Assembly (NCBI GenBank): GCA_016786565.1
Contig: JAEUVY010000127.1
Location: 4,476-68,475 of the forward strand
From: Flavipsychrobacter sp.
GTDB taxonomy: Bacteria; Bacteroidota; Bacteroidia; Chitinophagales; Chitinophagaceae
Length of the DNA stretch: 64,000 bases
Direction of reading: 5' to 3'
The notes below the pieces were generated by a model, which was given only the letters and a program-made list of their open reading frames with translations, did no database searches and had not been told where the DNA came from. Of the stretch, positions 12,165 through 64,000 are shown piece by piece. Every line of letters begins with the position of its first letter. Position 1 is the first letter of the stretch. The position numbers and the translations under genes were made by a program.

Positions 12165-12170
12165 AGGCTG

Positions 12171-13298: not shown

Positions 13299-13353
13299 AC
13301 CTTATGCCGACAAAAATATACTTTTACCGCTTTATCCGCCGTTATTTGTAGGC

Positions 13354-18179: not shown

Positions 18180-18272
18180 TAGTCAGACGAATAATTAATG
18201 CAGAAACGAACAGGTGGAAAGCCAGTTTGGCATATTCTAGACATTTTGGTATTCCTACAAACTCCCCAATTT

Positions 18273-18313
18273 GAAACGCCAGAATGCAGTGTTATCCTGC
18301 GCTCTGGCGTTTC
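18273..18313. terminator. Hairpin between the convergent fic and RT genes
   Basis: GAAACGCCAGA-N19-TCTGGCGTTTC (11-bp perfect stem). There is no strong T-tract on either strand, so terminator function is tentative. Confidence 0.4.
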
Positions 18314-18352
18314 TTGATAAATAGGGTATAATTGTAGTCGATAGAACACGAA

Positions 18353-21300: not shown

Positions 21301-21691
21301 TAAACGCTGTTACGCGGTCAATTTCATAGTTTTTTTCGACCCTTTTATTTGTGATAAAATTATCTTCAAGATTGTTTTCATTAATCCCCTTTATATAGAA
21401 ATCAACATCAATCTGATTTATAAAATAATCAAAGAAGGAAGGATTAGAATGATATTCATTTAATCCAGAGGTAAACAGTTCCAACTTCTCATCTACAGAA
21501 AAAAGTTTGGAATCAAATATATCGGCATTGTAGGGGGCATCCTGACTAAAAAAAATTGAAGTCCAATCTTTTGTTCTATTTGTTTCAAATTCAACTAGCT
21601 TTTTTCGTAGAATAATATCGGTATTGTCATAATAAACATATGATTTTAATTTGTTGTAAGCTTCTTTAACTTGTGAAATGTCGAATGTCAT
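18353..21691 (-). CDS. Reverse transcriptase-nitrilase fusion protein (UG1/DRT type 1-like defence-associated RT)
   Basis: Residue numbers follow the 1120-aa track ORF; the ATG at 21691 (codon 9) is the likely start. RT motif A LNLDIRDYFHS (D223). Motif B-like LPIGLVSSYVLANEYL. Motif C YGRYVDDILIV (YVDD at nt 20711-20722). A long helical middle region follows. The C-terminal C-N hydrolase-like triad contexts are LLFPEFF (E889), FRLKNHY (K949) and SFYCFEL (C990, nt 18746-18748). The gene is visibly AT-rich compared with its flanks. Confidence 0.85.
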   Translation of the reverse strand: MTFDISQVKEAYNKLKSYVYYDNTDIILRKKLVEFETNRTKDWTSIFFSQDAPYNADIFDSKLFSVDEKLELFTSGLNEYHSNPSFFDYFINQIDVDFYIKGINENNLEDNFITNKRVEKNYEIDRVTAFINAPVEIHLLSVLWIMQHGRELDGDLSDSCLGNRLLLTQNHEKIVQGSGLFKPYHAQYKKWRDDSIKAAQSILDNDKDVLFLNLDIRDYFHSVRIETTKLFEGRGKRKNPLLNSHYNLKEIFLKIHEKYTALVGQKYQVPYNFYVDLKENAKGAKTEVILPIGLVSSYVLANEYLKEFDSRIKQIIKPAYYGRYVDDILIVIADPQLDYHDLEQVKNLRFDFEEYKSEVNDNKDDLNEKVSFEKEDMTKLEKFVLPNFHPVIKLVDAPDHFNKATHIKNEDDCEEGKADKVFKLSGYSSLYCQSKKSLLYYFDHEESNLVIDKLKKELDERTSEFRDFPEEDENEETFEESAYHLLYDGTEGKIRTLKDYKENRYGLTVYLANKIFSALRHEKRISTSERDQVLKFFRGTNCLNFYRLWERIFTFFLVNNHAEAYVSFYLHCFGQLEKISVNLQNSQVKEKQIFATLFDYLDCAHEIAISLNPEFISKAKKAARHFEFQINKIEREYESSWFAATKPNSFWGKRFRETNMIRHHYVVHPLLNYTKESKLKNINLASLRIDLEHYALDMNLIEDSPRPIKFSECCMATVFVELADAGKKVDRIDNGYTFTKILGLTLNTSTIDDEGTENVESSSKDHFYLEDAFELYKRANKNHIPAYILEDKHFRNQFYVRNTDPVSYDNIMPTQIQELRVNSSDKLPEPKIAFANTEVKLDNIIRSVRNTPNLEFERYQKLAAILRQAREARTEILLFPEFFIPVNLLSSLVRHSQKNNLLTVTGLEHITIDKACFNFIVTILPVEVNGIKDSVVIFRLKNHYAHIEEELIEGNHYNVPKPSPYRYDIFVWRNIYFSSFYCFELANALHRSLMKGKIDLLIGIEWNKDTPYFSNIVEAGSRDLHVYVAQVNTSQYGDTRLTQPVESARKDILKLKGGLNDAILTAKINLTTLREFQRQKFSITHTKGDFKPLPPDFLVEDVLKRINNEKVL

Positions 21692-22528
21692 GGTAATAGT
21701 TTTTAATAAAAACAATTGAATTTGTTTCCAACAAATAAATAATTATAGCCGAATTTTCCCGTAATTCCTTTTCATGCAAGTATTCCACTTACCTTCTGTC
21801 TGTTTCCGTGATATCTGATTCAGAACTATTGAAATGGCGTTTTGCCATTAGATTCGGCCGTTGGGGTGACAGATTTTACGAAGTAAGTGTAGCTTTTCTC
21901 ACGCTGGAGGTGTATTGCCGCATTCATTTCCTGATTCCTTGTCCGAATTGCTCGGGCCTTGGGGTGGTATCCGCTTGTTAGCCATGGTAGGTGATTTTAG
22001 TTAACCAAAAGTAGTTAAGTTTTCGTTTTTACATAATATAAAATGTATTTTTTTGTAAGTGTAAAGATTCAGGTGTGGCAAAACATATCACCCATGCTGT
22101 AACACTCTCACTTGCCTTATAAAAATGGCGTTAACAAAAATGGCGGAACGCAGCGGCAGCAAAATCTATGGAGGTAGATGTTCCAAAGCTGATAGTAGCG
22201 AGGGCACAGTAGCGAAAACGGCAACGATAGATATCTACATTTTGCAGCGGAGTGCAGACATTTTTTAGCCAATTTTTATACAGCCATGATCTTTTGGTTC
22301 TTTTGTATCAAGGCCCATTTGGCGCAAGTGTTTTTTACTTGTGTCTATCATTCTTGCAAGTGTTTTCCACTTGCAAACCTACCTTTCATCTTTTTTCTGT
22401 CATACCCCACAATTCGCTCTATCATAGATTTTCTTTTTGCTCTGTAGTTATGCAGGATGTAACTTGTATTGATGTTGAAAGAATTCGTGGTTCAGATTCT
22501 TATATTGCATAATAACGTTACTTCTCGG

Positions 22529-36263: not shown

Positions 36264-36809
36264 ATGAACGTGTATCTTAAAAATATTCTGAGATTTTGCA
36301 TCATAGTTTCACTACAGGTGCTTATTCTCAACAAGATCACGCTGAGATGGTGGAGCGAACCGTCCGGATTCCCTGTTTTTATACCCTACATCTACCCACT
36401 ATTTATTCTCCTGCTTCCATTTGAAACTCCGGTATGGGCATTGCTTATATTGGGGTTCGTGTTGGGTGCCACTGTCGATTCGTTTGGCAACACAGCCGGT
36501 ATGCACGCATGTGCAACCGTACTTATTGCCTACCTCAGGACAAACGTATTGAGCGCACTGCTGCCACGCAATCTCTCAGAATATTCGGGGCTGCAGCCTT
36601 CCACCAGAAACATGGGCTGGATGCCCTTCCTTGTTTACAGCGGATTTCTCACCATTCTGCATCACCTGCTTTTCTTCAGCGTGGAACTCTGGAATCTCTC
36701 CAACGTTGGCCAATTGCTTTTGAAAACCGCTGCGTCTGCAGCAACTTCTATGCTCTTCATTATTGTTTACCTACTCCTGTTTACAAAACAGGATAATTCG
36801 AGAATCTAG
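36264..36809 (+). CDS. mreD: Rod shape-determining protein MreD
   Basis: 181-aa polytopic membrane protein directly after mreC. Confidence 0.75.
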   Translation: MNVYLKNILRFCIIVSLQVLILNKITLRWWSEPSGFPVFIPYIYPLFILLLPFETPVWALLILGFVLGATVDSFGNTAGMHACATVLIAYLRTNVLSALLPRNLSEYSGLQPSTRNMGWMPFLVYSGFLTILHHLLFFSVELWNLSNVGQLLLKTAASAATSMLFIIVYLLLFTKQDNSRI

Positions 36810-37645
36810 TCGAGCGGTAGAATATCGTTGAATACAATACCATAGGCCGAAACAGATAGATCTGGCTTGATCCAATTTGCAAAGAGATTTCCACCATTCG
36901 TTAAGCCGCAATTTATCTGCTTGACCCACCCCACTCCAGCATCATCTTTTATCAGACCGGCTCCAAAATATTGTGCCACAAAATACCCCGTATTTACCGG
37001 TGCATATGCCGCCGGCAATGACCCCATCAGGTAATAAAGTGAACCGGGAGAAGCCGCAAAATTCTGCGCGTTAGATGCTGTCAGCACTCCTCTTATGTGC
37101 AGCGTATTTGTTGTGTGATCCTTTTTGTAATACACCGTCCCGCTCACACCACCGTCCACTACCGATGTTGAAACAGACAGTGTCTTCCATGCAGCGTCTC
37201 TGTTGGCTGCACCAAACACTTTTCCGTAAGGGTTCAGATCGGTCAAGGGGAATCTCGTAGCGTCTGCAACTGTTCCCGTGGGCAGTACAGCAAGGCTCGC
37301 AGTTTTTTCATTGATCACATTTGGCGTGCTGCCGTCAAAGTAAATCAATGGTGCAGATGTCTCTGTTATCGACACGTACACGTCAGAGCCTCCGGTAGCG
37401 CCTGAAACAGACGAGCTCTCGCATCTTATCATTTCCCCATTGTAGAAAAACCAACCATTGGTAATGGAATAATCACCCGTTGATGGATTGCTGACAACCA
37501 TCCCGCTCACAACAACCGGCGCGCTGCCACTGCCACCCATTGCAGCCAATGCATTGGTCGCCTATATGTATGCCGATTGCAGATAATTAAGTTGGTCCTG
37601 CGTCAAGGGGAACCCTCCCGGCTTTGTAAAATCTATTGTCTTCAT
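36806..37645 (-). pseudogene. Tail fibre / receptor-binding protein gene with an in-frame TAG at codon 28
   Basis: ATG at 37643-37645 reads MKTIDFTKPGGFPLTQDQLNYLQSAYI, then TAG (37562-37564), then in frame ATNALAAMGGSGS.. into the 247-aa track ORF. The upstream ATG lies 30 nt after the preceding gene's stop, which fits the operon packing. Confidence 0.6.
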
Positions 37646-37675
37646 GTGCTTTATTTTTTCTCGCTTAAATAATCA

Positions 37676-38179
37676 TTAGAATACCACTATGCCGTAAACG
37701 CCCTTACCTGCTATCCTGTACTTATTGACTACAGCCCGCATATGCACCTCGTCAAAAACAACGGAAGCCGGCACCCTAATTATGAATGAATCGCCAAGCA
37801 GCGTGGTCTCAGTTGTTGTAAATAATGTGACCGGCGTGTCAAATGCGGCCACACCCGATTCTGCGCTCAGCCCAAGCCAAACGGGGTAGGTCTCAGGTTC
37901 TGTAAATACGAATGCCGGGTCTTCATAGCTACCGTCAACAATCGTAATTCCGCGCATCACGGTATCGAACGTATCATTCAGCACCGCCTCCAGAAAAACC
38001 ACCTGACCGGTATGAGCCAGTGTATACACATCGCCTTTCCTTTGCCTCAGGAACTGCACATGCAACCACTTTATCGGAGCTATCAGGCAACGTAGCCACG
38101 CCTTCATCTTTACGTTTCTCAGTCTTACCGGAAGCAACTGTGCACGCAGTATGTCATAATTAATATCAAAAAATCCCAT
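37676..38179 (-). CDS. Phage baseplate/tail-associated hypothetical protein
   Basis: 167-aa ORF placed between the baseplate J-like gene and the fibre gene. Confidence 0.5.
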   Translation of the reverse strand: MGFFDINYDILRAQLLPVRLRNVKMKAWLRCLIAPIKWLHVQFLRQRKGDVYTLAHTGQVVFLEAVLNDTFDTVMRGITIVDGSYEDPAFVFTEPETYPVWLGLSAESGVAAFDTPVTLFTTTETTLLGDSFIIRVPASVVFDEVHMRAVVNKYRIAGKGVYGIVVF

Positions 38180-38205
38180 CGCTATTTTCTGTTGATCTTG
38201 TTTGT

Positions 38206-39036
38206 CTACTCAGGCAGGTACGCCTCATAAGAAACATTGGCGGCAAAGTGGGTCTCGTCCAGTTTCATGTACCCCGCATCGGGAATGTATTTCACTGTGA
38301 TCGGTACAAATGCCGTTGAAGCGTAGTTTGCCTGTGCAGACAGTACCTGCCCTATCTTCACCCCTTCTATTGCCTGGAGCGCGGCGATAAACTTGTTAAG
38401 TATAAACACACCGTTGAATGGAAGGTCTGCCAGAAAGACCTTTATCGCATCCATTACCGGATTGACAGCAGTACCATCGATCCTCGAACCGGTCGCCGTC
38501 AGCACGAGCGGATCATAGAATATTTTCAACGACACTCTGAATGTATCAGGCGCATCACTTGTAATGTACAGCCTTACTCCCGCGTCCTTTATCCTGTTCA
38601 TGTATGTCGTAAACGCACTTAGTTCTGGTGCAGTCAACCCCTCCAGTGCCGCGGCTGGGCCCTTAGCCACTTTTATCCTTATCATATTCAGCAACTCTAT
38701 GGCTGCCGCGTATTGTACTATTGTAACACTTGTATCTTCAGTTGGCTCGGCATACTCATCACTATCCGGCGGAAGCGTCACCCCATACTGGAATGCCTTT
38801 GCCTTGTTTACATACCACGACAGCTTGTGGGGTCGCATAGTGCCGATCTTCAACTCCATCTCTGATCTGTGTGCATCAAACAACTCTTCCAGTGTCCATA
38901 TACACACAGCAACCACATATGTCCACAACCGCCACATCGCCACCTTGCTATCGCTCCAGGTATATGTACTCAGGTGCGGATCAGTTGTCATCGTACCTAT
39001 TATCTGGTCTTGTATCTCCTTGATCTTTCTTGCCAT
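38206..39036 (-). CDS. Baseplate J-like wedge protein
   Basis: Start taken at MARKIKEIQDQIIG. Size, position and C-terminal pattern (..FLADLPFNGVFILNKFIAALQAIEGVKIG..) resemble Baseplate_J family proteins. Confidence 0.55.
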   Translation of the reverse strand: MARKIKEIQDQIIGTMTTDPHLSTYTWSDSKVAMWRLWTYVVAVCIWTLEELFDAHRSEMELKIGTMRPHKLSWYVNKAKAFQYGVTLPPDSDEYAEPTEDTSVTIVQYAAAIELLNMIRIKVAKGPAAALEGLTAPELSAFTTYMNRIKDAGVRLYITSDAPDTFRVSLKIFYDPLVLTATGSRIDGTAVNPVMDAIKVFLADLPFNGVFILNKFIAALQAIEGVKIGQVLSAQANYASTAFVPITVKYIPDAGYMKLDETHFAANVSYEAYLPE

Positions 39037-39043
39037 TGTTTCT

Positions 39044-39994
39044 TTATTCAACTGTGATAACCATTGTAAAAGCTGAAGCCGGATAAGTAACACCCGCTGC
39101 CGTATTCATGTATGTTGTCTTTAATCCCAGCGTGTGCACACCTGCATTAAGCGTCACTACTGTCTTATCCGGATTTGCGGGATCCGACGGATCGGGAATA
39201 CCCGCACTCGCTACTCCAAGCCATTCCATACTATACGTGCTGAAGTTGGTGAGGACAATGGGAGGATGTTGCCTTATGAACCTCAATGTCACATTCGTAT
39301 TTGTAGATGACACCAACTCAACACTTATGTCACCCAACAAATGCTCTACAACCGTATTGCTGGTATTATCAAATACAGTCACCGGCGCCACATAAGCAGT
39401 ATTACCGGCAATGTCACTATAAGTGGCCGTAGTAATGGGCGCGCCCAGGTCGCTCCACACGATCATATAACCGAACCCAACCGTCCATGGCAACTTATAT
39501 GGGATCGATATACCGTCCATTGCAGTTACAGACTCGGGCAACGCACTCTCGGGCGTTAGCCCCATAATAAAACGCTCTTCTGTCTGGTATGTAAGTCGAT
39601 TATTCCCGGGAAATTCAACGTCGACCGGATTGAGATTCAAAAAATCGGGGCCACCCTGCATATCAAATTTGTAATACCCCATCACATGCGGATCACCTAC
39701 CTCATTCGGCACAGCTAGTATCCTTGGACGAAATACTATCCAATAGCCCAATCCCGTTGTGTATGCTGTTCCCAATAATATCTTCTCTCTCCTCAGATAC
39801 TCAATTGCAGATATGTCTGCACGCTCATCCGATACTTCCGGCAAGTTCACGCTGGTCCCTGCCATCGGCACACTTCCTACGTCTCTTCCGTTGGCCATGG
39901 CTACACTCATGGCCGCCTCCATTGTTCCGTATTCCGTAAGAACAATATCCAGCAAACTCTGATTGGGTTGTACTATTCCTGTTTTCATTTCCAT
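39044..39994 (-). CDS. Phage baseplate structural protein with LysM-like N-terminus
   Basis: 316 aa. The N-terminal ..IVQPNQSLLDIVLTEYGTMEAAMSVAMANG.. resembles LysM/gpX-like modules. Assignment is by position in the baseplate block. Confidence 0.5.
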   Translation of the reverse strand: MEMKTGIVQPNQSLLDIVLTEYGTMEAAMSVAMANGRDVGSVPMAGTSVNLPEVSDERADISAIEYLRREKILLGTAYTTGLGYWIVFRPRILAVPNEVGDPHVMGYYKFDMQGGPDFLNLNPVDVEFPGNNRLTYQTEERFIMGLTPESALPESVTAMDGISIPYKLPWTVGFGYMIVWSDLGAPITTATYSDIAGNTAYVAPVTVFDNTSNTVVEHLLGDISVELVSSTNTNVTLRFIRQHPPIVLTNFSTYSMEWLGVASAGIPDPSDPANPDKTVVTLNAGVHTLGLKTTYMNTAAGVTYPASAFTMVITVE

Positions 39995-40000
39995 GTATGT

Positions 40001-40300
40001 TTACCGGTATACCGCATTTGTATCTATCGATCCGTCTTTGTTCAACTTAATGCCCGAAACGATCATCCCGTCCCGGCAAAACTCTACGTTTATAGCACGT
40101 ATCATCCCTTCAAAATTTTCGTCATTCAGATAGTTGAATACTCCGACACAGATCGTAGGATTTTCTTTAAAATCGCCCTTATTGTTCAGCAATAATTGCC
40201 GCTGATGCGTTGCCGTACTTTCCGCTATTACCAGGTCTCCGCTATCAATCAAAAGATCGTCTCCTTCATCCAGCGAAATGTCTTTCATCTCCCTCGCCAT
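40001..40300 (-). CDS. Small baseplate-associated protein
   Basis: 99 aa in the slot occupied by gp25/W-like or XkdS-like proteins in myovirus tails. No diagnostic motif seen. Confidence 0.45.
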   Translation of the reverse strand: MAREMKDISLDEGDDLLIDSGDLVIAESTATHQRQLLLNNKGDFKENPTICVGVFNYLNDENFEGMIRAINVEFCRDGMIVSGIKLNKDGSIDTNAVYR

Positions 40301-40312
40301 ATCATCCTCTTT

Positions 40313-40861
40313 TTATGCTGCCAACAAATTGTTTAGTCTCAATAGAATCGCATCAAACAGCGCAACGTTCACCGGCACCGAACTAGGCCCTGTGGAAGTA
40401 GTTACAGTGATGAGTTTTATAGAATCCAGAATGTCCCTTAGAAGCGTATAAAGGTCCTCCGCACCGCATCTGATAGTTACCTTTTCCGCAACCCTCACTG
40501 TCGCCATTCCCGTGTCTATTTGAATGGATTCAGGAGTTACAACTACAGATCGGCCATGCAACCTCACCTCCCACTTTGATACGCTGCTTGCCTGAAGCAG
40601 AGTCCATTGCCCTGACCCGTCAATGCTGCCAATCACCACATCGCTACCCTCCTCAGGAGTAGCAATCACTCCATCGGTACCATCACTCGTTGCTTTAAAT
40701 AGAACATCCTTTATTTCAAGTCCGTTTGCCGACAGTACTACACTCATTGTATTTGCTCCGGCGTCAATGCTCCCTGCGACAACCTTGCCTGATACAATTT
40801 CAAAAGGTCTCCGTGATAGCTCTTTCAATCCGTCAATTATCCTCACACTATTTCTATTCAT
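40313..40861 (-). CDS. Baseplate spike / assembly protein V-like
   Basis: 182 aa, beta-rich N-terminal half and helical C-terminus. It lies immediately after the hub-like gene. Confidence 0.45.
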   Translation of the reverse strand: MNRNSVRIIDGLKELSRRPFEIVSGKVVAGSIDAGANTMSVVLSANGLEIKDVLFKATSDGTDGVIATPEEGSDVVIGSIDGSGQWTLLQASSVSKWEVRLHGRSVVVTPESIQIDTGMATVRVAEKVTIRCGAEDLYTLLRDILDSIKLITVTTSTGPSSVPVNVALFDAILLRLNNLLAA

Positions 40862-40865
40862 CCTT

Positions 40866-41888
40866 TTACATTTTCGTCACTTTGGGCCCTATCTCAATTA
40901 TTCGCCTGGCGCCACCTACACCAAACCGCACCTCCACACTTTCGGCCACATAGATCCCGTCCCTGTCTTTGTTCAAACTATCTGAAATAGACACCCTGTA
41001 TCCCGGCTGTACATATGGCTGCAAGTAGGCGGTGAGCTGCCCGTCGAGTCCACTATACCTGAACCTGGCCATTCGCTCGTCAGCAAGTTGCTTCAGACCT
41101 TTCCTGCCTGCGACATGGTTGAGCACACGCTGATAGTTTGCGCCGGTACTTCCAACCTTTGCTGCTGTGCCTGATTCAACAACTCCGCTGATGGGCCGCC
41201 TCATGTACACCACTTGTGCGGGCGCTCCTTCAGTGCTGTGTTGCCTCAGTTCACTGTCTCTTAGCGCATTATACCCCACCTTGTATTTCACTACGCTACC
41301 CCTGTTAAATACCTCTCCATTTGCGCATGAGGTATAAAACCGCCCGCACCACAACACATCTCGGTCAGCCATAAAACACTTTATGTTCCCGTCAGTATAG
41401 GTGCTGATAGCGTTTACCACATCCAATCCCGACATGCCCGATGAAAAGACATTAGTCAACTCCACATTGTCCTTGCACTTGACATGCAATCCGGGTAGCA
41501 TCTTCCTTATCGCTACTAACGCGCTCTGAACATCATTAGCGTTAACTATCTTCTCCGGCACAACTCGCCTTAGCAACCAACTTACACCCTCGCATTCAAT
41601 AATCACATGCCTATTGCAGGTTATGTTCTTTACATACCCCGTAAACTCCGTTTCAAGTGAACCATTGTATCCAAGCTTTATTACTACCGCATCACCCGCA
41701 CTAAATAGCTCCGATGGTGTTCTTCGTTCCGGTTGCGCTCTTCCTTTCCGTCTTATCATGGCCACCGCCGGTATGTGCACTTCAGCTGTCTCCACAACAC
41801 TGTGCACACTCTTCCTTATCACCACTTCATTCACGGTGGTAAAAAAGAATCCACCTATCGCTATCTTACTGTTTAGTACAAACATCAC
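40866..41888 (-). CDS. Baseplate hub protein (late control D / gp27-like)
   Basis: 340 aa. Size and position (after the tape-measure-like and LysM-like genes) are typical of the gpD-like hub. Confidence 0.5.
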   Translation of the reverse strand: MMFVLNSKIAIGGFFFTTVNEVVIRKSVHSVVETAEVHIPAVAMIRRKGRAQPERRTPSELFSAGDAVVIKLGYNGSLETEFTGYVKNITCNRHVIIECEGVSWLLRRVVPEKIVNANDVQSALVAIRKMLPGLHVKCKDNVELTNVFSSGMSGLDVVNAISTYTDGNIKCFMADRDVLWCGRFYTSCANGEVFNRGSVVKYKVGYNALRDSELRQHSTEGAPAQVVYMRRPISGVVESGTAAKVGSTGANYQRVLNHVAGRKGLKQLADERMARFRYSGLDGQLTAYLQPYVQPGYRVSISDSLNKDRDGIYVAESVEVRFGVGGARRIIEIGPKVTKM

Positions 41889-42535
41889 TCTATTGATATC
41901 AGGTTAAAGGTCTCATCACTGATCAGCTTCAATTCATAGGGTCGCACGTTCTTTACACCTGGTATCACCGGCATACGCATCTCCGCTATCACAACTTTGT
42001 CACTGCCACTCCTGTCTGGCCTCAGCAAGAAAATATCCGTCACTGCTGAGGCAATGGAAACAGGCTTGTTCTGTTCATAGGCATCTCTCAACATCGCTAT
42101 CTGGTCTTCAGGAAAATCATGTGTAGCTCCTATTATCAGCCCCCTTATCGTAATCTCGTAGTCCGATGTATTGATCATCTCCTTCACGGTACCTCTCCGC
42201 TCGGTCAATACTGTATCTATGATGTGCTTCTTGCTCTCTACACTCACCACCGGATTAGGCAACTGCCACGACTTGTTCGGCTTTTGATCTGAGTTCGACT
42301 CCCTTCCCGCGCCTCCATACGCCACTTGATCCTCATCCTCAAAACTGATTGTTACCGGCATGAATATCTTGCCATTCCTTCCGTCTTCATAATACGGCGA
42401 ACCACCCATACCGGTGCCAGCCCTCATCCCGTCCACCTCACCATATGTCTTAGGGAAATTTGGCTTGAACGCCTCCGGGCTCACACCAAACGCCTTCTTA
42501 TATAGGTCCACCAGACTCAAACTTATCCTCGCCAT
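41885..42535 (-). CDS. Phage tail/baseplate protein, function unknown
   Basis: 216 aa. Its start overlaps the upstream gene's end (4-nt coupling at 41885-41888 with the next gene). Confidence 0.5.
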   Translation of the reverse strand: MARISLSLVDLYKKAFGVSPEAFKPNFPKTYGEVDGMRAGTGMGGSPYYEDGRNGKIFMPVTISFEDEDQVAYGGAGRESNSDQKPNKSWQLPNPVVSVESKKHIIDTVLTERRGTVKEMINTSDYEITIRGLIIGATHDFPEDQIAMLRDAYEQNKPVSIASAVTDIFLLRPDRSGSDKVVIAEMRMPVIPGVKNVRPYELKLISDETFNLISIE

Positions 42536-42538
42536 CTC

Positions 42539-43660
42539 TTATCCTATTGTGTTTACACTTTCAAGAATGTCCATCAATACTCCCTCTATCTTCGACCGCA
42601 ATTCATACGCGCCTCCGTCACCTCTGTTCGTCTGGATCGTCACCGACCCTATCAATGGCTGATTGATCTCTACTTTCACTGCCTGGCTTCGCTGATTCAT
42701 GTTCGTCCCGGTTCCTCTTCTTCCGTTTCCTGCAGCACTTTCTGTCGGCAAGTGTATCAGCTTATTGTCAAACTTCCCTCCATTTGACAGCCCTGAGCCG
42801 TCCATCGAAAAATTCGGCCTTAACGATACTGGTTTTACTGACTGCATAAAATTGTTTCTGTAGATCATTCCCCTTTCTACAGGCAACGTTGACCTACTTT
42901 GTAACAGTCCGCGAGATGGAACTAAGCTGCTACGGGACACATTCGGCAATTCACTCGAATGAAAACTCTTGGGATCGCCTGAAGTACGCAAATCATATGC
43001 AACCCGCGATTCACCTTCATTTCGCAACCCGACCGTCGCTCTCATACTCTCAATACCTGTTCTCGTCTTTCTCGCATAAAAAGGAGCAGTTATCGTCGGT
43101 GTCTTTTGTTCGGTTAGCCAAAGCGCATTTTTACGACAGCTAGCTAAGTTCTTCCCAATGGCAGTTTGGCTTCCTTCTGAATCCCGCACAGGAAGTCTTC
43201 CATTTCCAGCGGAATTTATTACTTCATGTGAATCAGCGCTTGTCAATACCCTGGAGGTCATCTCCGATTCCAATACCCGCAACTTCCCTACGCGTGCAAT
43301 CGGTTCTCGCAATCTATTCCCCTTTAAGAAAATGGGCAGTTGCTCAATGTGCATCTCTGGTTTGTTCCCTACAATCTCGCTTGTCCTTATTCTCCCACCA
43401 GTGTTTATCCCTTGCCCCGAGATCCGATCTTCATCATTTTGTTGCCTGTTGTCCGGTCGTGTCTTCTGTCTGTTTTGCGAAAGCGCTTTCCTCCCATACC
43501 TCATAAACCTGAATACAGATGACAGCCCCATGCCACTCACTTTAATTCCTCGAGTCTTCAATTGCATAAACACCCCGGCCAACTCAGCTATCCTTTTCAC
43601 CCCATCTTCTTCTTTAACTGCAACCTTTTGCATTTGGGCTCCCATTGTTCCGTGTTCCAT
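42539..43660 (-). CDS. Tape-measure-position protein, Arg/Ser/Gly/Asn-rich
   Basis: 373 aa in the tape-measure slot (after tube and chaperone, before the hub). Composition is basic and low-complexity rather than the long helical type. Confidence 0.45.
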   Translation of the reverse strand: MEHGTMGAQMQKVAVKEEDGVKRIAELAGVFMQLKTRGIKVSGMGLSSVFRFMRYGRKALSQNRQKTRPDNRQQNDEDRISGQGINTGGRIRTSEIVGNKPEMHIEQLPIFLKGNRLREPIARVGKLRVLESEMTSRVLTSADSHEVINSAGNGRLPVRDSEGSQTAIGKNLASCRKNALWLTEQKTPTITAPFYARKTRTGIESMRATVGLRNEGESRVAYDLRTSGDPKSFHSSELPNVSRSSLVPSRGLLQSRSTLPVERGMIYRNNFMQSVKPVSLRPNFSMDGSGLSNGGKFDNKLIHLPTESAAGNGRRGTGTNMNQRSQAVKVEINQPLIGSVTIQTNRGDGGAYELRSKIEGVLMDILESVNTIG

Positions 43661-43678
43661 CTCTCCTCCTTTTTCTTC

Positions 43679-43810
43679 TTACTCATGCTCATCTGCAGGT
43701 CGTTCATGTTGCAGTATATAATTCAAGTGCGCAATTTTCCTCGCAAACTCTTCGTCACTCAACTTCCTGTGGTCCAGTCCCGGTAAATGGTATTCCAATA
43801 TCGTCTCCAT
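43679..43810 (-). CDS. Candidate small ORF between the chaperone-like and tape-measure-like genes
   Basis: 43 codons: METILEYHLPGLDHRKLSDEEFARKIAHLNYILQHERPADEHE. It is below the ORF-track cutoff and fills an otherwise empty 190-nt gap. Confidence 0.3.
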   Translation of the reverse strand: METILEYHLPGLDHRKLSDEEFARKIAHLNYILQHERPADEHE

Positions 43811-43851
43811 ATATCCCACGGGATCGTGCGTCGGACCGCCGCGCGATCCCT

Positions 43852-44175
43852 CTATAAGTTTACCAGTACCGCTTTCTTACCTTCAAGTTTCACTTTCAAC
43901 TCCTGGCATACACCAATGAACATCTGATCATCGCGCAGCACCTCTTCACTTCCGCCAAGAAAGGTCAGCGATGCCAGCTCTTCGTACATGTCCAGCGCCC
44001 GCTCATTGTCGGCCTTGCTCATGGCGCAGTTCAATTCTTGCCTTCCCGGATTCTTGAAGTAGGCAATATGTCCATCCACTTCAATCGAGTAGATTCCATA
44101 CTTATGGCTCGCCTTCCATTCCCTTATCTGCGCATCAGCGGCGCTTCCTATTGGTTTACTATTCTGTTCGTTCAT
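43852..44175 (-). CDS. Tail assembly chaperone-like protein
   Basis: 107 aa, directly downstream of the tube gene, which is the usual chaperone position. Confidence 0.4.
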   Translation of the reverse strand: MNEQNSKPIGSAADAQIREWKASHKYGIYSIEVDGHIAYFKNPGRQELNCAMSKADNERALDMYEELASLTFLGGSEEVLRDDQMFIGVCQELKVKLEGKKAVLVNL

Positions 44176-44187
44176 CTCGTTGGTAGT

Positions 44188-44622
44188 TTATTGCACTGAA
44201 ACCAGTTTCATGAAAACGATCGGCAGCGTCACATCCATATGCTTTGCGCCCTGGTCCCATCCTTTCTCAAACTCTTTTATCTCTACGCCCACAAGGGTGT
44301 CGGTCTGCAACCCTCTTGCCCCTTTGGCCTTGTACGTGATCACTATGTCGAACTGCAGGTCAAGGATGTCGTCACCTCCCGCCAACAGTGCGGCCTTGTT
44401 CATGTCATCCAGCGCACCCTTCAGCACCTTTATATGCCCCTCATAGGTCCGCTTCCCACCCTGAATACTTATTGGCTCATCGCCTGCGGCATGCAGCAGT
44501 TGTTTATCCTTCAGTGCTTTGTATTTCAGTCCCCTTATTTTGGTCAGGTTCGATCCCGCCACTGTTACGGTCATATCTGCCCATTCACAGTCTTTACTAT
44601 CGAAAAATGGTATCGTTGGCAT
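44188..44622 (-). CDS. Tail tube protein
   Basis: 144 aa, immediately after the sheath gene, with beta-rich composition. Confidence 0.6.
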   Translation of the reverse strand: MPTIPFFDSKDCEWADMTVTVAGSNLTKIRGLKYKALKDKQLLHAAGDEPISIQGGKRTYEGHIKVLKGALDDMNKAALLAGGDDILDLQFDIVITYKAKGARGLQTDTLVGVEIKEFEKGWDQGAKHMDVTLPIVFMKLVSVQ

Positions 44623-44663
44623 TTTTTTGATTCTTTTGTTCTGTTATTAATTGATCAGCCTCA

Positions 44664-45842
44664 CTAGATCGCCGGGTTATTGAAACCAAGGCTGATCTCT
44701 ATCTGTGTCGCATATCCCACCGGCACAATTCCTATCACTACATTCAGCTGGTTGGTGCTCAGTATGTTCTGCGCAGGGTCTATAAAGCACTTCACACTGC
44801 TTATCTCCCTGTTAGCCGTCATGGTATTATTGATCAGGTTCTCTATCTGCTGACTCAACCATTTGCAGAATCCGGGCTCCAGTGTCCCGTCTGTGGTCAC
44901 CGGCACTTCATCATCCACCACCTGCACAAACGTGGCATAAGCCAGCACATGTGCCTTGTCTATTACGCGCCCTCTCGCCAGCACACTATAGTCGTCTGTC
45001 GTCGCCGCACAGGTCGGATCACCCGAGAAATAATACCCGGTCGTATTCGGATAGGTCATGAAGGTGATGAATCCCTTTCCCGCTATTACCGGCAGGCTCT
45101 CCGCAACAGAAGCCACCGCTGTTGTTGCAAGAAATGCGCTGGTATTCGAAAGTGGTCCGTTCCTCACCCTGCTTATCTTTCGTTGCACCGGCACCGTAGA
45201 GAGCACACCCAATACCAGCCCCACACATGCTCCTTTGCCTGCCACTGTATCGCCTATCACTATAGCGGTTCTGTTATTCGATCCTCCTGTGGCCATATCA
45301 GTCAGTGCTGCTGCGCTGCCCGAATAACTGGTTCCTCCTATCACGGCTCTGAAGGGCTTGTGTGCTTCAAAATACTCCTGCGCAAGTGCTGCCATATTGG
45401 TCGCCGCGGCATATACATCCTCATTCACACCATTGGTCACAGTTACCGCCGATCCCGCTGCAATAACAGCCGCGTCATCACTCAACACGCCCAGCAATTT
45501 TATCCTGCCTCCCGCATAGTCCAGCAGCTTCCTCGCACCTGCCGCCTCACTCACCAGGGCCACCTCATCTACGGTCATCGTTGCAGGCACAAGCATCAGG
45601 TACAGTTGCGCGCCACTGCCGGCCTGTGCATAAAACTCCTTCACCTGTCGCAGGGCAAATGCGTTTCCCGTCTCTGTTATGCCTGCTGCGTTGGCAGAAG
45701 CCACACTTGTTATCAGTATCGGCGTACCTACCGTGTAAGCGCCCTCAGTCGCCCCCGTCACTACCAGGCCTGGCATCCCGTCATTGGTCTGCAGCGTTCC
45801 GCCCAATTGGCCGTTGGCCAACGTTATATTTACACTACCCAT
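44664..45842 (-). CDS. Contractile tail sheath protein (DUF2586-like)
   Basis: 392 aa, Ala/Gly/Thr/Val-rich. It sits in the slot between the head genes and the tube. It resembles the remembered DUF2586 sheath-like family. Confidence 0.6.
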   Translation of the reverse strand: MGSVNITLANGQLGGTLQTNDGMPGLVVTGATEGAYTVGTPILITSVASANAAGITETGNAFALRQVKEFYAQAGSGAQLYLMLVPATMTVDEVALVSEAAGARKLLDYAGGRIKLLGVLSDDAAVIAAGSAVTVTNGVNEDVYAAATNMAALAQEYFEAHKPFRAVIGGTSYSGSAAALTDMATGGSNNRTAIVIGDTVAGKGACVGLVLGVLSTVPVQRKISRVRNGPLSNTSAFLATTAVASVAESLPVIAGKGFITFMTYPNTTGYYFSGDPTCAATTDDYSVLARGRVIDKAHVLAYATFVQVVDDEVPVTTDGTLEPGFCKWLSQQIENLINNTMTANREISSVKCFIDPAQNILSTNQLNVVIGIVPVGYATQIEISLGFNNPAI

Positions 45843-45919
45843 TCTCTTTTGTTTTTTGATTTACAGTTCTTCGTTGTTCACTTGTTCACGAAACACTACA
45901 TCCTGATGAGGAAATTATC

Positions 45920-46348
45920 CTACCTCGATGCGGTATATTTTGCCTGAACAAACAGATCATAATCCCTTTGCTTCATCCGGCCTCCATCCAGTGCCGCGGT
46001 AATAAGGCTTGCCAGCTTATGCAGCAACGCGTCCTTCACCTCTGGCGCAGCCTTTGCCAGCTCAGTTATCAGGCACCTGATTCTCGCATTTATATCTCCC
46101 TCTTCTGCGCATGTGTTCATTGCCGTAAGGGTCACCACCGCTTTTTCTAGTGCTGTCACTATGTGTCGCTTCAGCAGATCGTCCGCTTCTCCCGGTATCA
46201 GCAATGTCACTACATCTGAGGCCGGCGACTCCAGCATTACCTTCAGTGCCGTTGTTATCTGCAATGCCGTTTCTGCATGTGCTTCAACATACTCGTCAAA
46301 GTGTTGCACCAGCTGCCGTATCTTTTTTCTCATTTTATTACAGAACAT
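45920..46348 (-). CDS. Phage-cluster helical hypothetical protein
   Basis: 142 aa, predicted all-helical, sitting in the head-tail connector slot. Confidence 0.45.
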   Translation of the reverse strand: MFCNKMRKKIRQLVQHFDEYVEAHAETALQITTALKVMLESPASDVVTLLIPGEADDLLKRHIVTALEKAVVTLTAMNTCAEEGDINARIRCLITELAKAAPEVKDALLHKLASLITAALDGGRMKQRDYDLFVQAKYTASR

Positions 46349-46360
46349 ATTCTCTTGGTT

Positions 46361-46633
46361 TTAGTGTTTATAGAGTATCGCGTTTGTCTCCAGCGCATGT
46401 AGTCGTTCGGCATGCTCATTGAGGCGGCGGTGTATCATGGCTTCCTGGTCTTTCAACCCCTGTATCTGTTGTCCCTGCACCGTGGTCACTTGTGTCAGCT
46501 GTTTCAATTCCGTCACTATTTCATCCAGCCTCTTTATCACCTGATCCGTGATCACCTTTACCGTAAAGCCCAGTATTGTTGCCATTACACCGGCCGCCCC
46601 TATGAGTATCCATATTTTTATCTCACTCAGCAT
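46361..46633 (-). CDS. Membrane-anchored coiled-coil protein
   Basis: 90 aa. N-terminal TM helix IWILIGAAGVMATILGF, then heptad-like ..LDEIVTELKQLTQVTTVQGQQIQGLKDQ.. Confidence 0.5.
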   Translation of the reverse strand: MLSEIKIWILIGAAGVMATILGFTVKVITDQVIKRLDEIVTELKQLTQVTTVQGQQIQGLKDQEAMIHRRLNEHAERLHALETNAILYKH

Positions 46634-46642
46634 TTTCTTCTT

Positions 46643-47557
46643 TTATGCTGCGGCCTGCACTATGGCCACAATTCCTTTCGCATCATTTCTGCGTTTCCTC
46701 GCTCCCATTCTCACACCCACGCTATATATGTCACCATAGTAAGTAGGGTCTCCTATTCGCTCAAAGAAGGTGATCTGTCCCAGCGCGCGCTCCACCGCGC
46801 TCACCTGCCAGCACAACACACCGTCATTGTCGTCTGCTGCTGCCAGTGCTCCGTAGCTGTTCACTTCCGGCAGCGTCGTGTTATCGTAGCTCACCACACT
46901 TCCCCTCATCATAATGTTGAAACCGAACAAACGTCCCAACACACCGTCTTTCACATCATAGGCCGCACTGAAATCGCGGTACTGCGTCGCCGACATATCA
47001 TCTGTCAGTTGCTGAAACATGTCTGCGCTTATCAGGGCATACCTGCCTTCCATTGGTATGTTCTGCTTGTTCATCTGCAGTTGCGCGTGTTTCAGGTCAT
47101 TCACCGTCAGCTTCTTTCGGTTACCGGTCGTGTCATCAAGATGTGTCGCCGTCGATACACCTGTTGTTCTGATGATCGTTCCTGTCGCTCCCGTCGGGCT
47201 CCAGTCAATCAGCAGGTTCTCCGCTATCGTCTGCCTCAGCGACGACTCATATTCGGCAAGTATGCTTTCACGTTTGTTGTAGCTCAGTTCAAAACTCTCC
47301 GCATTCGGTATCAGTATCGGATCCGTTGTAAACTCGTCCAGCACATAGGTTACATCTGTGTCCGTCCGCTGCACTACTGTTGCCGGCACCGATGCCCTGT
47401 TCTTTACCACAGTCGCTGTTGCTCCTGCCTGCGGTATGTGCACTACTTTGCCCTGCAGCACATACTGACTTGCATCCGTCGACGCCAGCAGAAACTCATT
47501 GTTCTTGAATAGATTTCCCTCTATATGGTCCTGCCATATCTCTTTTTGAATTGCCAT
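46643..47557 (-). CDS. Major capsid protein (HK97-fold type)
   Basis: 304 aa. The N-terminus MAIQKEIWQDHIEGNLFKNNEFL..VHIPQAG..VVKNR..PATV..RTDTDVTYVLDEFTTDPI..ELSYNKR matches the remembered pattern of a capsid family common in Bacteroidota prophages. It follows the protease-scaffold gene. Confidence 0.78.
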   Translation of the reverse strand: MAIQKEIWQDHIEGNLFKNNEFLLASTDASQYVLQGKVVHIPQAGATATVVKNRASVPATVVQRTDTDVTYVLDEFTTDPILIPNAESFELSYNKRESILAEYESSLRQTIAENLLIDWSPTGATGTIIRTTGVSTATHLDDTTGNRKKLTVNDLKHAQLQMNKQNIPMEGRYALISADMFQQLTDDMSATQYRDFSAAYDVKDGVLGRLFGFNIMMRGSVVSYDNTTLPEVNSYGALAAADDNDGVLCWQVSAVERALGQITFFERIGDPTYYGDIYSVGVRMGARKRRNDAKGIVAIVQAAA

Positions 47558-47673
47558 CTTTTTTTATGATTGTTTGGTGATAGAATTTTATCTCATTACA
47601 GCACACGCAGTGCCTGGCACGCTCGTGCATTCAGTTTCTTCCCGTAGATGTTGGTGTTGGTATTTTATTTCGC

Positions 47674-48666
47674 TCAGGCGTTGAATTTGTTGTTAAACAA
47701 CTCCTGATATTTTGCGCCGTCGGTCGCGCGCAATTCCATTAACTTCTTACCACTGGGGTCATTGCGTTCATAGTCGTCCCAGGTCCATTCAGCAACATTG
47801 CCTTCCGCTCTCGGTTGGCTCAGTTGTTCCGCTATAGATCGGTAAGCAGGCATTGCAGCCAGTAGTGTTCTTAGTCCTTCCGGGTTGCCCGCATAGTCAG
47901 CAGCCAGACGGTCTCGCAATTCCACCGTCACCTTCTTGTCTTCCAGTGCCCTCACCAGCATCGATTGCACTTCGGCCTTCATTCGGCTCGTTTGTATTTC
48001 CTCCAGTGTCGCGGTTAGTCGGCTCCTTTCTTCATACAGTAATTGATTCTCTGCTTCCAGCTGTGTCGCTTTCAGTGCCAGTTGCTCCACTGCCTTTCCT
48101 ATTTGTAGTGCGTCACTTGTCTTTTCCATTTTCAGGTGAACGGCCATTGTCGCCAGCAACTCATTGTTCCCTATTGTATAGATCGACTTGTTGCCGCTCA
48201 TGTCCGCCAGATTCATTTCGTTTTCATTGGCGTCATACAATTGGGTCAGCGCATTGCAGTTGCCTGGTATATCCACCAAACTGCACTCTTTGTTATACCA
48301 TCTTGTTATCGTTGGTCCGGTTTGGCCAGGCAGCATCAGTTCTTTGTCCAGGCTATACTCCAGTACCACTATGTGTCCCACCGATGCAGCGTTCAGGAAA
48401 CCGTTTTCCACTTCCTGCAATGTCTGCTCACCTCTCGCGTTCACCAGATTTATCACCGGCACACCCAGCAACTGGTCTCCTTCTACCCGCAGGTCTTCCC
48501 ACTTCAGCACTATGCCGTCCTCACGCTTGTGCATATAATATCCTATGGGGTTCTTCCTGAATGATTCGATCTCGTAACCCGATGTCAATAATCTGAACCC
48601 ATATTCGTTCACACTGCTGTCCGAGAGTACATAACTCCGCTCTGCTTTCTTCAATTTGTCGGTCAT
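47674..48666 (-). CDS. Prohead protease fused to a scaffold-like coiled-coil domain
   Basis: Start taken at MTDKLKK (ATG 48666). The N-terminal half has the HK97-type protease pattern (..NPIGYYMHKREDG.. and ..GFLNAASVGHIV..). The C-terminal half is coiled-coil (..LEAENQLLYEERSRLTATLEEIQ..). Confidence 0.75.
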   Translation of the reverse strand: MTDKLKKAERSYVLSDSSVNEYGFRLLTSGYEIESFRKNPIGYYMHKREDGIVLKWEDLRVEGDQLLGVPVINLVNARGEQTLQEVENGFLNAASVGHIVVLEYSLDKELMLPGQTGPTITRWYNKECSLVDIPGNCNALTQLYDANENEMNLADMSGNKSIYTIGNNELLATMAVHLKMEKTSDALQIGKAVEQLALKATQLEAENQLLYEERSRLTATLEEIQTSRMKAEVQSMLVRALEDKKVTVELRDRLAADYAGNPEGLRTLLAAMPAYRSIAEQLSQPRAEGNVAEWTWDDYERNDPSGKKLMELRATDGAKYQELFNNKFNA

Positions 48667-48969
48667 GATAGGGATTTGGTTGTTTTGTGACACAAAGGTC
48701 ATTCGCATTCCGGTGCCCCGCAAATCACGTTTCTGTCATTCGCATCTATTGCCATACCGTTGGCTGTCTGCTGCTTATCATAGATTTATTTCCGCTCCCA
48801 ATCCGTTCATACTCAGTCAGCTTACACATTTCATTCTGCCTGGCACCTCACATGTTCCACATTCTTTCGTTTGCAGCCGATCCTCCTACTCATATTAACG
48901 CAATTTTTGCTGAATATCCCCCGCCTGCACGCCCTCATGGTTCACGCAGAAATAATATCTTTGTTCCTT

Positions 48970-63221: not shown

Positions 63222-63734
63222 CTACACCCCTGCATCAAACTCGCCCGTTATCACCGGCGTCACAGCCACATATGTTACCGCCGCCTGCGTACTTCTGTCA
63301 TCAAATGCCAGACTATACCGTATTTCACGCACCCTGTAACCGTCCGTCCTTTGCTGGCTCCTTGTGTTCTTCCTTATTAGGTACCCGAAACCCTCTCCCG
63401 CACTCCACCCGTGCAACGCCTTGTTCAACTTCCACTCCAACTCATAATACCCCAATGCTGCCTCCTTATATTCCTCCGGGGTACCGCTTGCCGTCGGCCC
63501 ATTCGGCGCGAAACCCAGCAACACACACACTGTCCCCTCAGCCGTCTGTACGTTCGACCCCAGATTGTCATATTCAAACGTTTCCATGTCTATCAGCACA
63601 CACGGCCACTGCACCGCCGGCCTGCTCTTGGCGTTCAGTTGTCCTCTGTCCTGATCCACCCAGGCTATCTCAGGCACTACAGCGCCTATACGCTCCTGCA
63701 TGTTTTTCAATAATCTCGAAAATGGCGAATTCAT
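63222..63734 (-). CDS. Phage-like structural protein (neck/tail-completion-like)
   Basis: 170 aa. The pattern ..IGAVVPEIAWVDQDRGQL...PAVQWPCVLID... resembles head-tail connector/tail-completion proteins as I remember them. The call is weak. Confidence 0.4.
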   Translation of the reverse strand: MNSPFSRLLKNMQERIGAVVPEIAWVDQDRGQLNAKSRPAVQWPCVLIDMETFEYDNLGSNVQTAEGTVCVLLGFAPNGPTASGTPEEYKEAALGYYELEWKLNKALHGWSAGEGFGYLIRKNTRSQQRTDGYRVREIRYSLAFDDRSTQAAVTYVAVTPVITGEFDAGV

Positions 63735-63757
63735 CTCTATTCAGTTTTTAGTTTTCC

Positions 63758-64000
63758 TCACGCCTGTTCCTTCACAGGCACACCATAGGTCTCACTCCAA
63801 TATTCCCTTGGTATATTCACTATCGCATTCAGCTCTTTGTCTATAGCCACTCTTTTGTACAGCTGTTCCACATCCATTTCTTTGGCAAATACAAACCGCC
63901 CCCCATCGGTGTCGTACCCATACGATCGCAATACGCTCAAAAACCGGGCACTGTTCAGCATCGACGCGGTATACGCTATATCTGCCTTCGTTATCTCAAA
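63758..64000 (-). CDS. 3' end of a gene running off the right edge (possibly phage portal, Mu gp29/DUF935-like C-terminus)
   Basis: The frame is open from 64000 down to the stop at 63758 (FEITKADIAYTASMLNSARFL...NIPREYWSETYGVPVKEQA). The terminal ..W.E.YG.P.. resembles remembered DUF935 tails. Only 80 codons are visible. Confidence 0.3.
   Translation of the reverse strand, partial: FEITKADIAYTASMLNSARFLSVLRSYGYDTDGGRFVFAKEMDVEQLYKRVAIDKELNAIVNIPREYWSETYGVPVKEQA

Follow-up and report, generated by a model that had tools for sequence, protein, structure and literature searches.

What is a set of phage head and tail genes doing flush against the host gene mreD in a Bacteroidota chromosome: is it a prophage in decay, or a particle system that the host has made its own? 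The question arises from a 64,000-nt stretch of Flavipsychrobacter sp. (assembly GCA_016786565.1, contig JAEUVY010000127.1, positions 4,476–68,475, forward strand), which we call the window. A first-pass annotation had described a head-and-tail cluster between mreD and pheS and had left both answers standing. We find that the cluster is one of two modules of a single element, the second of which, a packaging/connector module, lies here 14.5 kb away with essential genes (pheS, radA) in between. We put at roughly 0.6 the probability that the cluster is the head–tail operon of a domesticated Mu-type myovirus (a ‘viriform’), vertically inherited and bipartite, whose particles most likely carry host DNA. 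Of the two earlier alternatives, a domesticated particle system is strongly supported, while a decaying prophage is contradicted by conservation, selection and intact open reading frames (ORFs).

A head–tail operon joined to mreD

The minus strand of the window is tiled from 36806 to 48666 by 16 co-directional ORFs (g1 to g16, numbered from the protease end) with gaps of at most 190 nt. They run in the order protease/scaffold, major capsid protein, sheath, tube, frameshifted chaperone, tape-measure-slot gene, two hub proteins, baseplate genes and fibre-slot gene. Hidden Markov model matches for the protease/scaffold, capsid, sheath, tube and hubs bear out the one-strand head-and-tail cluster described at first. 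The names given then to the protease, capsid, sheath, tube, chaperone and hubs held, whereas spike, baseplate and fibre are labels given by position only.

The cluster is flanked by mreB-mreC-mreD on one side and by pheS/radA on the other. Its left boundary is probably mreD (36264–36809, plus strand), an ORF that follows mreB and mreC and matches TIGR03426 over the full length, below cut-off (E 5.5e-7). Bases 36806–36809 confirm that the mreD stop and the fibre stop share the tetranucleotide CTAG. The right end, earlier placed about 250–300 bp from pheS, needed a correction: protease homologues are ~330 aa long, so the protease starts at ATG 48666 and not at TTG 48723, which leaves a divergent spacer of 303 bp to the likely pheS start (ATG 48970). 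The TTG-extended ORF would cover the putative promoter of the operon itself.

The host-like composition that had been judged by eye was borne out by numbers (GC 0.492 in the cluster vs 0.495). Relative synonymous codon usage of cluster and host correlated with r 0.67, compared with 0.58 when one half of the host set was set against the other, and 0.06 for a foreign low-GC island of the same window. The earlier statement that att-like repeats are absent also stood, as neither tRNAs nor att-like features were found; tRNA genes and Rfam families are absent from the whole window, so there is no tRNA-type att site. Scans of 36.0–49.1 kb for sigma70 promoters and intrinsic terminators gave chance-level results, with no terminator at the fibre/mreD junction, and a megablast search of the whole cluster against GenBank phages returned no match. 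We noticed that the convergent fibre gene and mreD meet without an intergenic spacer or detectable terminator, both here (36806–36809) and at 17 related loci. Transcription of the particle operon would therefore run antisense into mreD, and vice versa, an arrangement that might conceivably link the making of particles to the control of cell shape.

The packaging genes lie in a displaced second module

The first-pass annotation had reported no portal or terminase gene. This is true within 36806–48723, but the same window contains a tail terminator gene and the end of a portal gene at 63222–64000, on the same strand as the cluster, which we found with proteins of Porphyromonas gingivalis phages as queries. 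The premise that the locus lacks packaging genes thus failed: the module is displaced beyond housekeeping genes, and part of it is in this window. Its last gene, the terminator (63222–63734, minus strand; phrog_6911), lies 14.5 kb upstream of the protease, with at least nine housekeeping genes between. Its 170-aa product was modelled confidently with AlphaFold2 (AF2; pLDDT 85), and the fold corresponds to those of the tail terminators of Mu (9khy), T5 (p142), lambda (gpU) and RcGTA (6tba); the protein is 26% identical to a P. gingivalis phage ‘tail completion’ protein. A Mu-type portal gene enters the window with its last 80 codons (63758–64000, minus strand); its remainder lies beyond the right end, as do the adaptor, TerL and TerS genes. 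This assignment comes from near-identity to the portal of L078, a Flavipsychrobacter metagenome-assembled genome (MAG) with a 96%-identical terminator: the translated fragment differs by one residue from the C-terminus of L078’s 372-aa Portal_Mu protein.

We read the rest of the module from L078, where TerS and TerL are followed by a secreted, charged protein of 189 aa, the adaptor, a membrane protein of 120 aa encoded on the other strand, the portal and the terminator. TerS (145 aa) has an N-terminal helix-turn-helix (HTH; PF06056, phrog_4151), TerL (523 aa) matches phrog_38 (3e-70), the adaptor is Mu gp36-like (PF07030, 7.9e-8), and the portal (372 aa) covers the full Portal_Mu domain (PF06074, 2.6e-62). 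On one side the L078 module is flanked by thyA, EGF-like and TPR genes, on the other by UbiD, a ferredoxin-reductase-like gene, a DEAD helicase, lutB, DUF7033, an M3 peptidase, radA and pheS. The two additional proteins, one secreted and highly charged (7350–7919 of L078, between TerL and adaptor), the other a multi-pass membrane protein (8384–8746, between adaptor and portal), are absent from phage relatives. They have no family match and are candidates for a role in release or regulation.

The element is inherited vertically in one clade of Chitinophagaceae

A search with the protease returned 765 relatives with a plateau at ~60% identity, many of them on contigs of 0.1–1.3 Mb. Scanning one genome per species gave 76 loci, ~60 of which fall into a conserved clade with the same gene order, hosted by Flavipsychrobacter, Taibaiella and Nemorincola and by Chitinophagaceae MAGs. 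Most loci are MAG or metagenome contigs, and 10 kb of flank was examined at each. Some record titles are plainly mislabelled: L007 (CALQJX020000001.1), L053 (CALRKH020000019.1) and L072 (QFOI01000297.1) are titled Bordetella parapertussis, Asaia bogorensis and Pseudopedobacter saltans. L007 and L053 carry the Chitinophagaceae element together with a pheS 85–89% identical to the window’s (the radA of L007 is 91% identical), and their labels look wrong; L072 matches the N-terminal domain of the protease only.

The mreD-linked position recurs in many species. The ‘wedge’ between mreD and pheS that had been described is conserved at mreD only; towards pheS the arrangement is specific to the lineage, and the one seen here is one among several. 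When metagenomes were scanned around g14, the junction fibre|mreD-mreC-mreB-carB was kept across lineages, with MreD 68–98% identical to the window’s overall and just 68–81% in part of them, and in 17 loci the stop-to-stop distance between fibre gene and mreD ranged from -4 to +6 nt. Three lineages carry two extra fibre-like genes at the junction. One or two such genes lie between g16 and mreD in L114, L116, L117 and L119 (~12100–13500) and in L110 (12128–14992); they share the N-terminal motif MAIKxRTxLKxYF..G..PTQ.QF, and the single fibre-slot gene of the window, flush with mreD, is the streamlined form.

At the other end, the position of the packaging module varies. It is directly divergent from the protease in L035, L037, L049, L055 and L059, separated from it by a DEAD helicase gene in L010–L021, and separated by 3–6 kb of secreted-protein or metabolic genes in L031, L040, L042, L048 and L060. 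A block running from pheS to UbiD splits the modules in the arrangement seen in this window. In L006, L009, L018, L022, L033 and L034 the thyA-side genes adjoin the protease and the packaging module is elsewhere, and in L109 and L137 it lies ~4 kb downstream of the fibre gene. The distance between modules ranges across loci from 0.5 kb to ~185 kb, the latter on contig Ga0164296_1000002. A single inversion was considered as the origin of the pheS, thyA and DEAD arrangements and does not explain all of them.

In a tree of capsid, sheath and tube proteins all chromosomally anchored loci formed one clade, within which the pheS, thyA and DEAD neighbours each defined one subclade. Distances between elements followed those between hosts, measured on MreBCD and CarB (Mantel r 0.86, p 2e-4; 10 taxa, including two near-identical pairs). 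The conserved junction, the single clade and this co-divergence together indicate one ancient capture followed by vertical descent across the clade, with occasional rearrangement, and not repeated integration. The best explanation is capture in an ancestor of the Flavipsychrobacter/Taibaiella/Nemorincola group of Chitinophagaceae.

Synonymous divergence (dS) from L081, L004 and L078 is uneven along 30978–63734: it is ~0.09 at UbiD and the terminator, 0.4–0.7 from pheS through g5, and 1.1–2.8 from g12 through mreBCD and carB, where the Mre proteins are still 97–100% identical. The pattern suggests that recombination has made the region a mosaic, with a breakpoint among the tail genes.

Both modules are under purifying selection

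We estimated selection as omega, the pairwise Nei–Gojobori (NG86) ratio of nonsynonymous (dN) to synonymous (dS) divergence, without tree structure. Fifteen of the 16 head–tail genes had values far below 1 (0.00–0.13 at dS 0.1–1), next to 0.01–0.08 for flanking housekeeping genes, the exception being the tape-measure-slot gene g8. In the packaging module, six independent pairs gave 0.03–0.14 for TerS, TerL, adaptor, portal, terminator and the two clade-specific genes (0.03–0.07 for the last two). Purifying selection thus covers structural and packaging genes alike, and the distal tail genes evolve ~10x faster than the head genes.

Copies were full-length and free of stops in 90/91 loci for the capsid, 87/87 for the tube, 82/85 for the sheath, 83/83 for the hub, 26/28 for TerL and 21/22 for the portal. 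TerL has also kept 75 of the 80 columns that are at least 95% conserved in phage relatives, including the Walker-like, DDxD and DGPD motifs. The element is neither strain-specific nor broken by mutation, and no complete prophage can be reconstructed around it.

What was lost and gained relative to phages

Relatives at or below 48% protease identity are phages of 26–40 kb from IMG/VR or MAGs. They have a long portal with a MuF-like domain (phrog_35074 profile, 890 positions), a neck gene and a tape measure of 590–790 aa, and repressor or transposase/MuB genes occur in at least part of them. By comparison, IMG/VR records above 50% identity are fragments of 11–25 kb that hold the cluster alone or the cluster and the packaging module. 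In the clade the whole set of early genes and the neck gene have disappeared, the portal has lost its C-terminal half and the tape measure roughly half its length; the gap between portal and terminator has shrunk to 28–750 nt, against 1.6–2.6 kb in phage relatives. In most clade members the packaging module has acquired two genes, one for the secreted 189-aa protein and one for the membrane protein encoded antisense. With the early proteins of P. gingivalis phages as tblastn queries, no transposase, MuB, Gam or repressor match was found in any clade locus including its 10-kb flanks, and matches occurred in distant loci only (L063, L073, L075, L076 and L190). No integrase was found in the clade loci over the same range. 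Outside the main clade, L187 (IMGVR_UViG_3300047494_000252, ~13848–14423) has a portal–terminator gap of 412 nt and only 276 bp, with no tape-measure gene, between its chaperone and DUF6046 genes, and may represent a second, independent reduction.

Relation to known systems

By function the element is closest to RcGTA-type agents and PBSX, and by descent to Mu-type Bacteroidota phages, that is, the transposable phages of P. gingivalis and the pippiviruses. RcGTA, too, is a head–tail cluster of phage origin that is fixed in the chromosome, has passed vertically through a clade and is under purifying selection; it lacks replication and integration genes, and its components occupy more than one locus. 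The two share the fold of the tail terminator (6tba_4A), which is the only link, as all family matches of the element are to Mu-type or Bacteroidota phage proteins; it is of independent origin, with no sequence homology to RcGTA, and falls outside the RcGTA family. It also differs in its host phylum, in having a Mu-type portal, adaptor and protease and a contractile tail with baseplate, whereas the RcGTA tail is siphovirus-like, in a TerS that keeps its HTH, and in being known from genes alone. PBSX of Bacillus subtilis resembles it as a chromosomal, non-propagating head with contractile tail and is a possible model for a killing role. PBSX, however, is found in one species group and forms a contiguous prophage-like block that includes a repressor and lysis genes of its own, whereas the element is bipartite, spans several genera and lies near no gene recognisable as a regulator or lysis gene.

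The closest annotated phages are the transposable siphophages of P. gingivalis (phage006a_EM3, BK068089.1), which have homologous TerS, TerL, adaptor, portal, terminator, protease (27%) and capsid protein (43%) and the same divergent packaging | protease-capsid layout as the loci with adjacent modules. In contrast to the element, these are complete phages of 33–35 kb with repressor, transposase, MuB-like and Gam-like genes, non-contractile tails, a neck gene and an 852-aa portal–MuF fusion; the neck, the C-terminal half of the portal and the early genes are missing from the element. The Flavobacterium Winoviridae myophage Pippivirus lotta8-1 (NC_048829.1) is collinear (TerS-TerL-x-adaptor-portal...protease-capsid-DUF2586 sheath-tube-tape measure-hub-fibre) and has a 28% identical sheath, but is a lytic or replicative phage of 34.7 kb with helicase/primase genes, a separate MuF-like gene and an endolysin after the fibre genes. 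To Mu itself the links are Portal_Mu (PF06074, 2.6e-62), the gp36 adaptor (PF07030, 7.9e-8), a weak Mu I protease/scaffold match (PF10123, 0.0026) and the terminator fold; identity is too low for direct BLAST matches. The A/B transposition genes, c repressor, lysis genes and host-range inversion system of Mu are absent, and the element does not form the contiguous 33–40 kb genome with transposase A, MuB and c repressor of a Mu-like transposable prophage.

How the element might work, and what else it could be

Given the observed gene content and bipartite layout, particle production would most likely be controlled by the host and proceed as follows. The host would transcribe both modules, the head–tail operon from its own conserved host-type promoter. 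Protease/scaffold and capsid protein would assemble a procapsid on the Mu-type portal, and TerS and TerL would package DNA into it by the headful mechanism. The chaperone and its frameshift product, tape measure, hub, tube and sheath would give rise to a short contractile tail, with the terminator as its cap and the gp36-like adaptor as its link to the head. Particles would be released by lysis functions encoded elsewhere and would adsorb through the fast-evolving distal tail proteins. Neither genes for autonomy in the 10-kb flanks nor a contiguous, excisable genome were found; lacking replication, transposition, integration and immunity genes, and with its parts non-contiguous, the element cannot propagate itself. 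Constraint on capsid, portal and terminase suggests that DNA-filled heads matter, which favours a role like that of a gene transfer agent (GTA) over a pure tail weapon. A further step would be a bona fide Bacteroidota GTA, with two unlinked modules, that packages host DNA and moves it among cells of the Flavipsychrobacter/Taibaiella group, its operon locked to mreBCD since the origin of the clade. We advance this step tentatively and give it somewhat less than even odds.

Several observations weigh against a domesticated, DNA-carrying particle. We know the element here as genes and not as particles. No holin or endolysin was identified in the clade loci with their 10-kb flanks, no neck/stopper homologue was found, and the loss of the neck gene and the MuF-like portal half might impair head–tail joining or DNA retention. 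TerS keeps its N-terminal HTH, unlike RcGTA TerS, so that packaging could be sequence-directed, and the span from TerS to the fibre gene is ~32 kb in this genome, which a Mu-size head could hold. In-frame stops occur in TerL (L010, L012), portal (L042), sheath (L013) and protease (L019) and could be MAG errors or real decay. Finally, the count of ~60 clade species covers species that carry the element.

The rival to be taken most seriously, though we consider it unlikely, is a PBSX-like killer: a domesticated head-plus-contractile-tail particle selected to kill related strains, in which DNA packaging is incidental or serves assembly. A contractile tail with distal genes evolving ~10x faster than head genes and a g8 omega of ~0.5 is the pattern expected for strain-specific targeting. 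The shortened tape measure fits as well, and loss of the neck and of the MuF-like ‘DNA pilot’ domain could have abolished productive DNA delivery. However, constraint on capsid, portal, TerS and TerL is as strong as that on the tail (omega 0.01–0.12), which is hard to explain if the tail alone mattered; TerL keeps its catalytic columns, and pure tailocins lose their head genes. A tailocin or contractile injection system proper was rejected, since the element has capsid, protease, portal, TerS and TerL genes, all of them under constraint.

We regard an active temperate phage that integrates at the mreD 3' end, or a helper locus serving a separate replicon or satellite, as improbable. The very precise fibre|mreD junction in many hosts, the provirus label that IMG/VR pipelines give the cluster and a TerS-to-fibre span near a Mu-size headful would fit such an entity. 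Yet integrase, transposase and repeats were not found, codon usage is host-like, the other boundary is variable (pheS, thyA, DEAD and secreted-protein genes) with neighbour types that follow the element phylogeny, essential single-copy pheS and radA lie between the modules, and in one genome these are ~185 kb apart. A site-specific prophage at mreD was discarded on the variable boundary, the essential genes inside, the 185 kb between modules and the lack of integrase or tRNA genes; a complete prophage reconstructable from the flanks was discarded because housekeeping genes bound both modules. Least probable by far is a functionless, decaying remnant of a Mu-like prophage kept by chance. Early, integration and lysis genes are indeed absent, deletions have removed the neck gene and the C-terminal domain of the portal, and a few loci contain stops, but the same gene order persists in ~60 species and many metagenome loci, omega is 0.01–0.14 with more than 95% of ORFs intact, the frameshift region and promoter are conserved and the element co-diverges with its host. 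These conservation data effectively refute it.

Returning to a domesticated Mu-type particle, known GTAs and GTA-like elements are few; they occur in Alphaproteobacteria, Brachyspira, Desulfovibrio and Methanococcus and include PBSX and the recently described Faecalibacterium FpGTA. A 2026 paper that lists known GTA systems has none in Bacteroidota (PMC12946183). Literature searches on Flavipsychrobacter and prophages, or on GTA-like elements in Bacteroidota, returned nothing relevant. The element is thus a strong candidate for the first GTA-like element in this phylum. A bipartite Mu-type element kept by selection across a clade would be a new, independent phage domestication in an abundant freshwater/soil lineage, with a trail that can be followed through the lost early genes, neck, MuF domain and half of the tape measure and the gain of two new genes and a host promoter. 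Direct testing is possible, as the cultured isolates F. stenotrophus RB1R16 and N. caseinilytica JCM 32105 carry the element. Provirus callers (IMG/VR) record such elements as ‘viruses’ of 11–12 kb.

Genes of the head–tail operon

All genes described here are on the minus strand. The operon begins with a Bacteroidota-type putative promoter (48693–48724) made of a -33 element TTTG (48721–48724), a 20-nt spacer and a -7 element GACCTTTG (48693–48700). Known Bacteroidota promoters follow the consensus TTTG/TAnnTTTG, and from this match we infer that TTTG-N20-GACCTTTG acts as promoter of the head–tail operon. CTTTGTG stands ~30 nt upstream of the protease ATG in 64 of 79 distinct loci, independent of the upstream neighbour gene.

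The first gene, g1 (47674–48666), encodes a prohead protease with a C-terminal scaffold-like coiled coil, similar to Mu I/Z (phrog_11321, 1e-56; PF10123 weakly, as above); the N-terminal 160 residues are almost invariant among homologues, and omega is 0.04–0.12. The major capsid protein g2 (46643–47557; phrog_267 1.4e-33, PF19821, PF11651) is Mu T/P22-coat-like, of the HK97 fold class, with omega 0.00–0.10. Next comes g3 (46361–46633), a 90-aa protein with an N-terminal transmembrane helix and a coiled coil, which gave weak PHROG matches only; it is full-length in 77/79 loci (median identity 69%, omega 0.06–0.14) and is a candidate lysis or assembly factor. The 142-aa all-helical product of g4 (45920–46348) is clade-specific and has three conserved Cys and an omega of 0.04; no family matched it, and its AF2 model (pLDDT 63, low confidence) gave no fold match.

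The contractile tail sheath g5 (44664–45842) matches DUF2586 (5.7e-54) and phrog_907 (9e-39), with omega 0.03–0.05, and the tail tube g6 (44188–44622) matches phrog_4579 ‘tail protein’ and phrog_9206, with omega 0.01. The tail assembly chaperone g7 (43679–44175; phrog_19076) consists of the chaperone ORF (43852–44175) and a -1 frameshift extension (43876 to 43679). Beyond the chaperone stop, at least 40 further codons can be read in the -1 frame in all 68 distinct loci and in the +1 frame in 2/68, which indicates that a G/GT-type frameshift product has been retained; no slippery site was identified for it. In the tape-measure slot, g8 (42539–43660) is a low-complexity, fast-evolving protein assigned by its position, without family match; most loci have an ORF here that ends at the g9 start, with lengths of 290–520 aa. 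The DUF6046 baseplate-hub-associated protein g9 (41885–42535; PF19512 3.4e-26, phrog_5233) has omega 0.05 and the baseplate hub g10 (40866–41888; phrog_4930, 6.2e-40) omega 0.10.

Towards mreD the genes are mostly named by position. They are the spike-slot protein g11 (40313–40861), conserved across loci with omega 0.07–0.10; the small baseplate protein g12 in the gp25/W slot (40001–40300; median identity 56%, omega 0.02–0.06); and g13 (39044–39994), an accessory baseplate or fibre protein of some lineages only, with omega 0.11 against L151 and absent between g12 and g14 in L042, L045, L048, L051 and L052. In the J slot, g14 (38206–39036, with its real start at ATG 39036) matches phrog_38413 (1.6e-66) and is called a baseplate wedge protein by position; mean column identity is 67% in a 12-sequence alignment, and omega is 0.05. 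The distal baseplate protein g15 (37676–38179) is full-length in 35/35 loci, with a dN ~10x that of head genes. Finally, the fibre-slot protein g16 (36806–37549), the fastest-evolving of the conserved genes, is a candidate receptor-binding protein. Searches of Pfam, PHROGs, NCBIfam and the PDB returned no match for g11, g12, g13, g15 or g16, an NCBIfam search of the small tail proteins returned nothing, and PDB profile searches for g11, g12, g15 and the tail terminator gave chance-level matches only.

Other features of the window

The low-GC island used above for comparison of codon usage lies at 17085–21715 (GC 0.37–0.39 vs ~0.49). It contains a 1120-aa ORF (18353–21715, minus strand) with a reverse-transcriptase domain (PF00078, E 1.6e-8), which adjoins a Fic/DOC protein (17085–18179), and may be a defence-type reverse-transcriptase island. 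Elsewhere in the window, a HipA_C kinase-type toxin gene (7940–8896; PF07804, 5.9e-46) lies near secreted proteins sorted by the type IX secretion system (T9SS) at 2278–4464 and 5831–7678.

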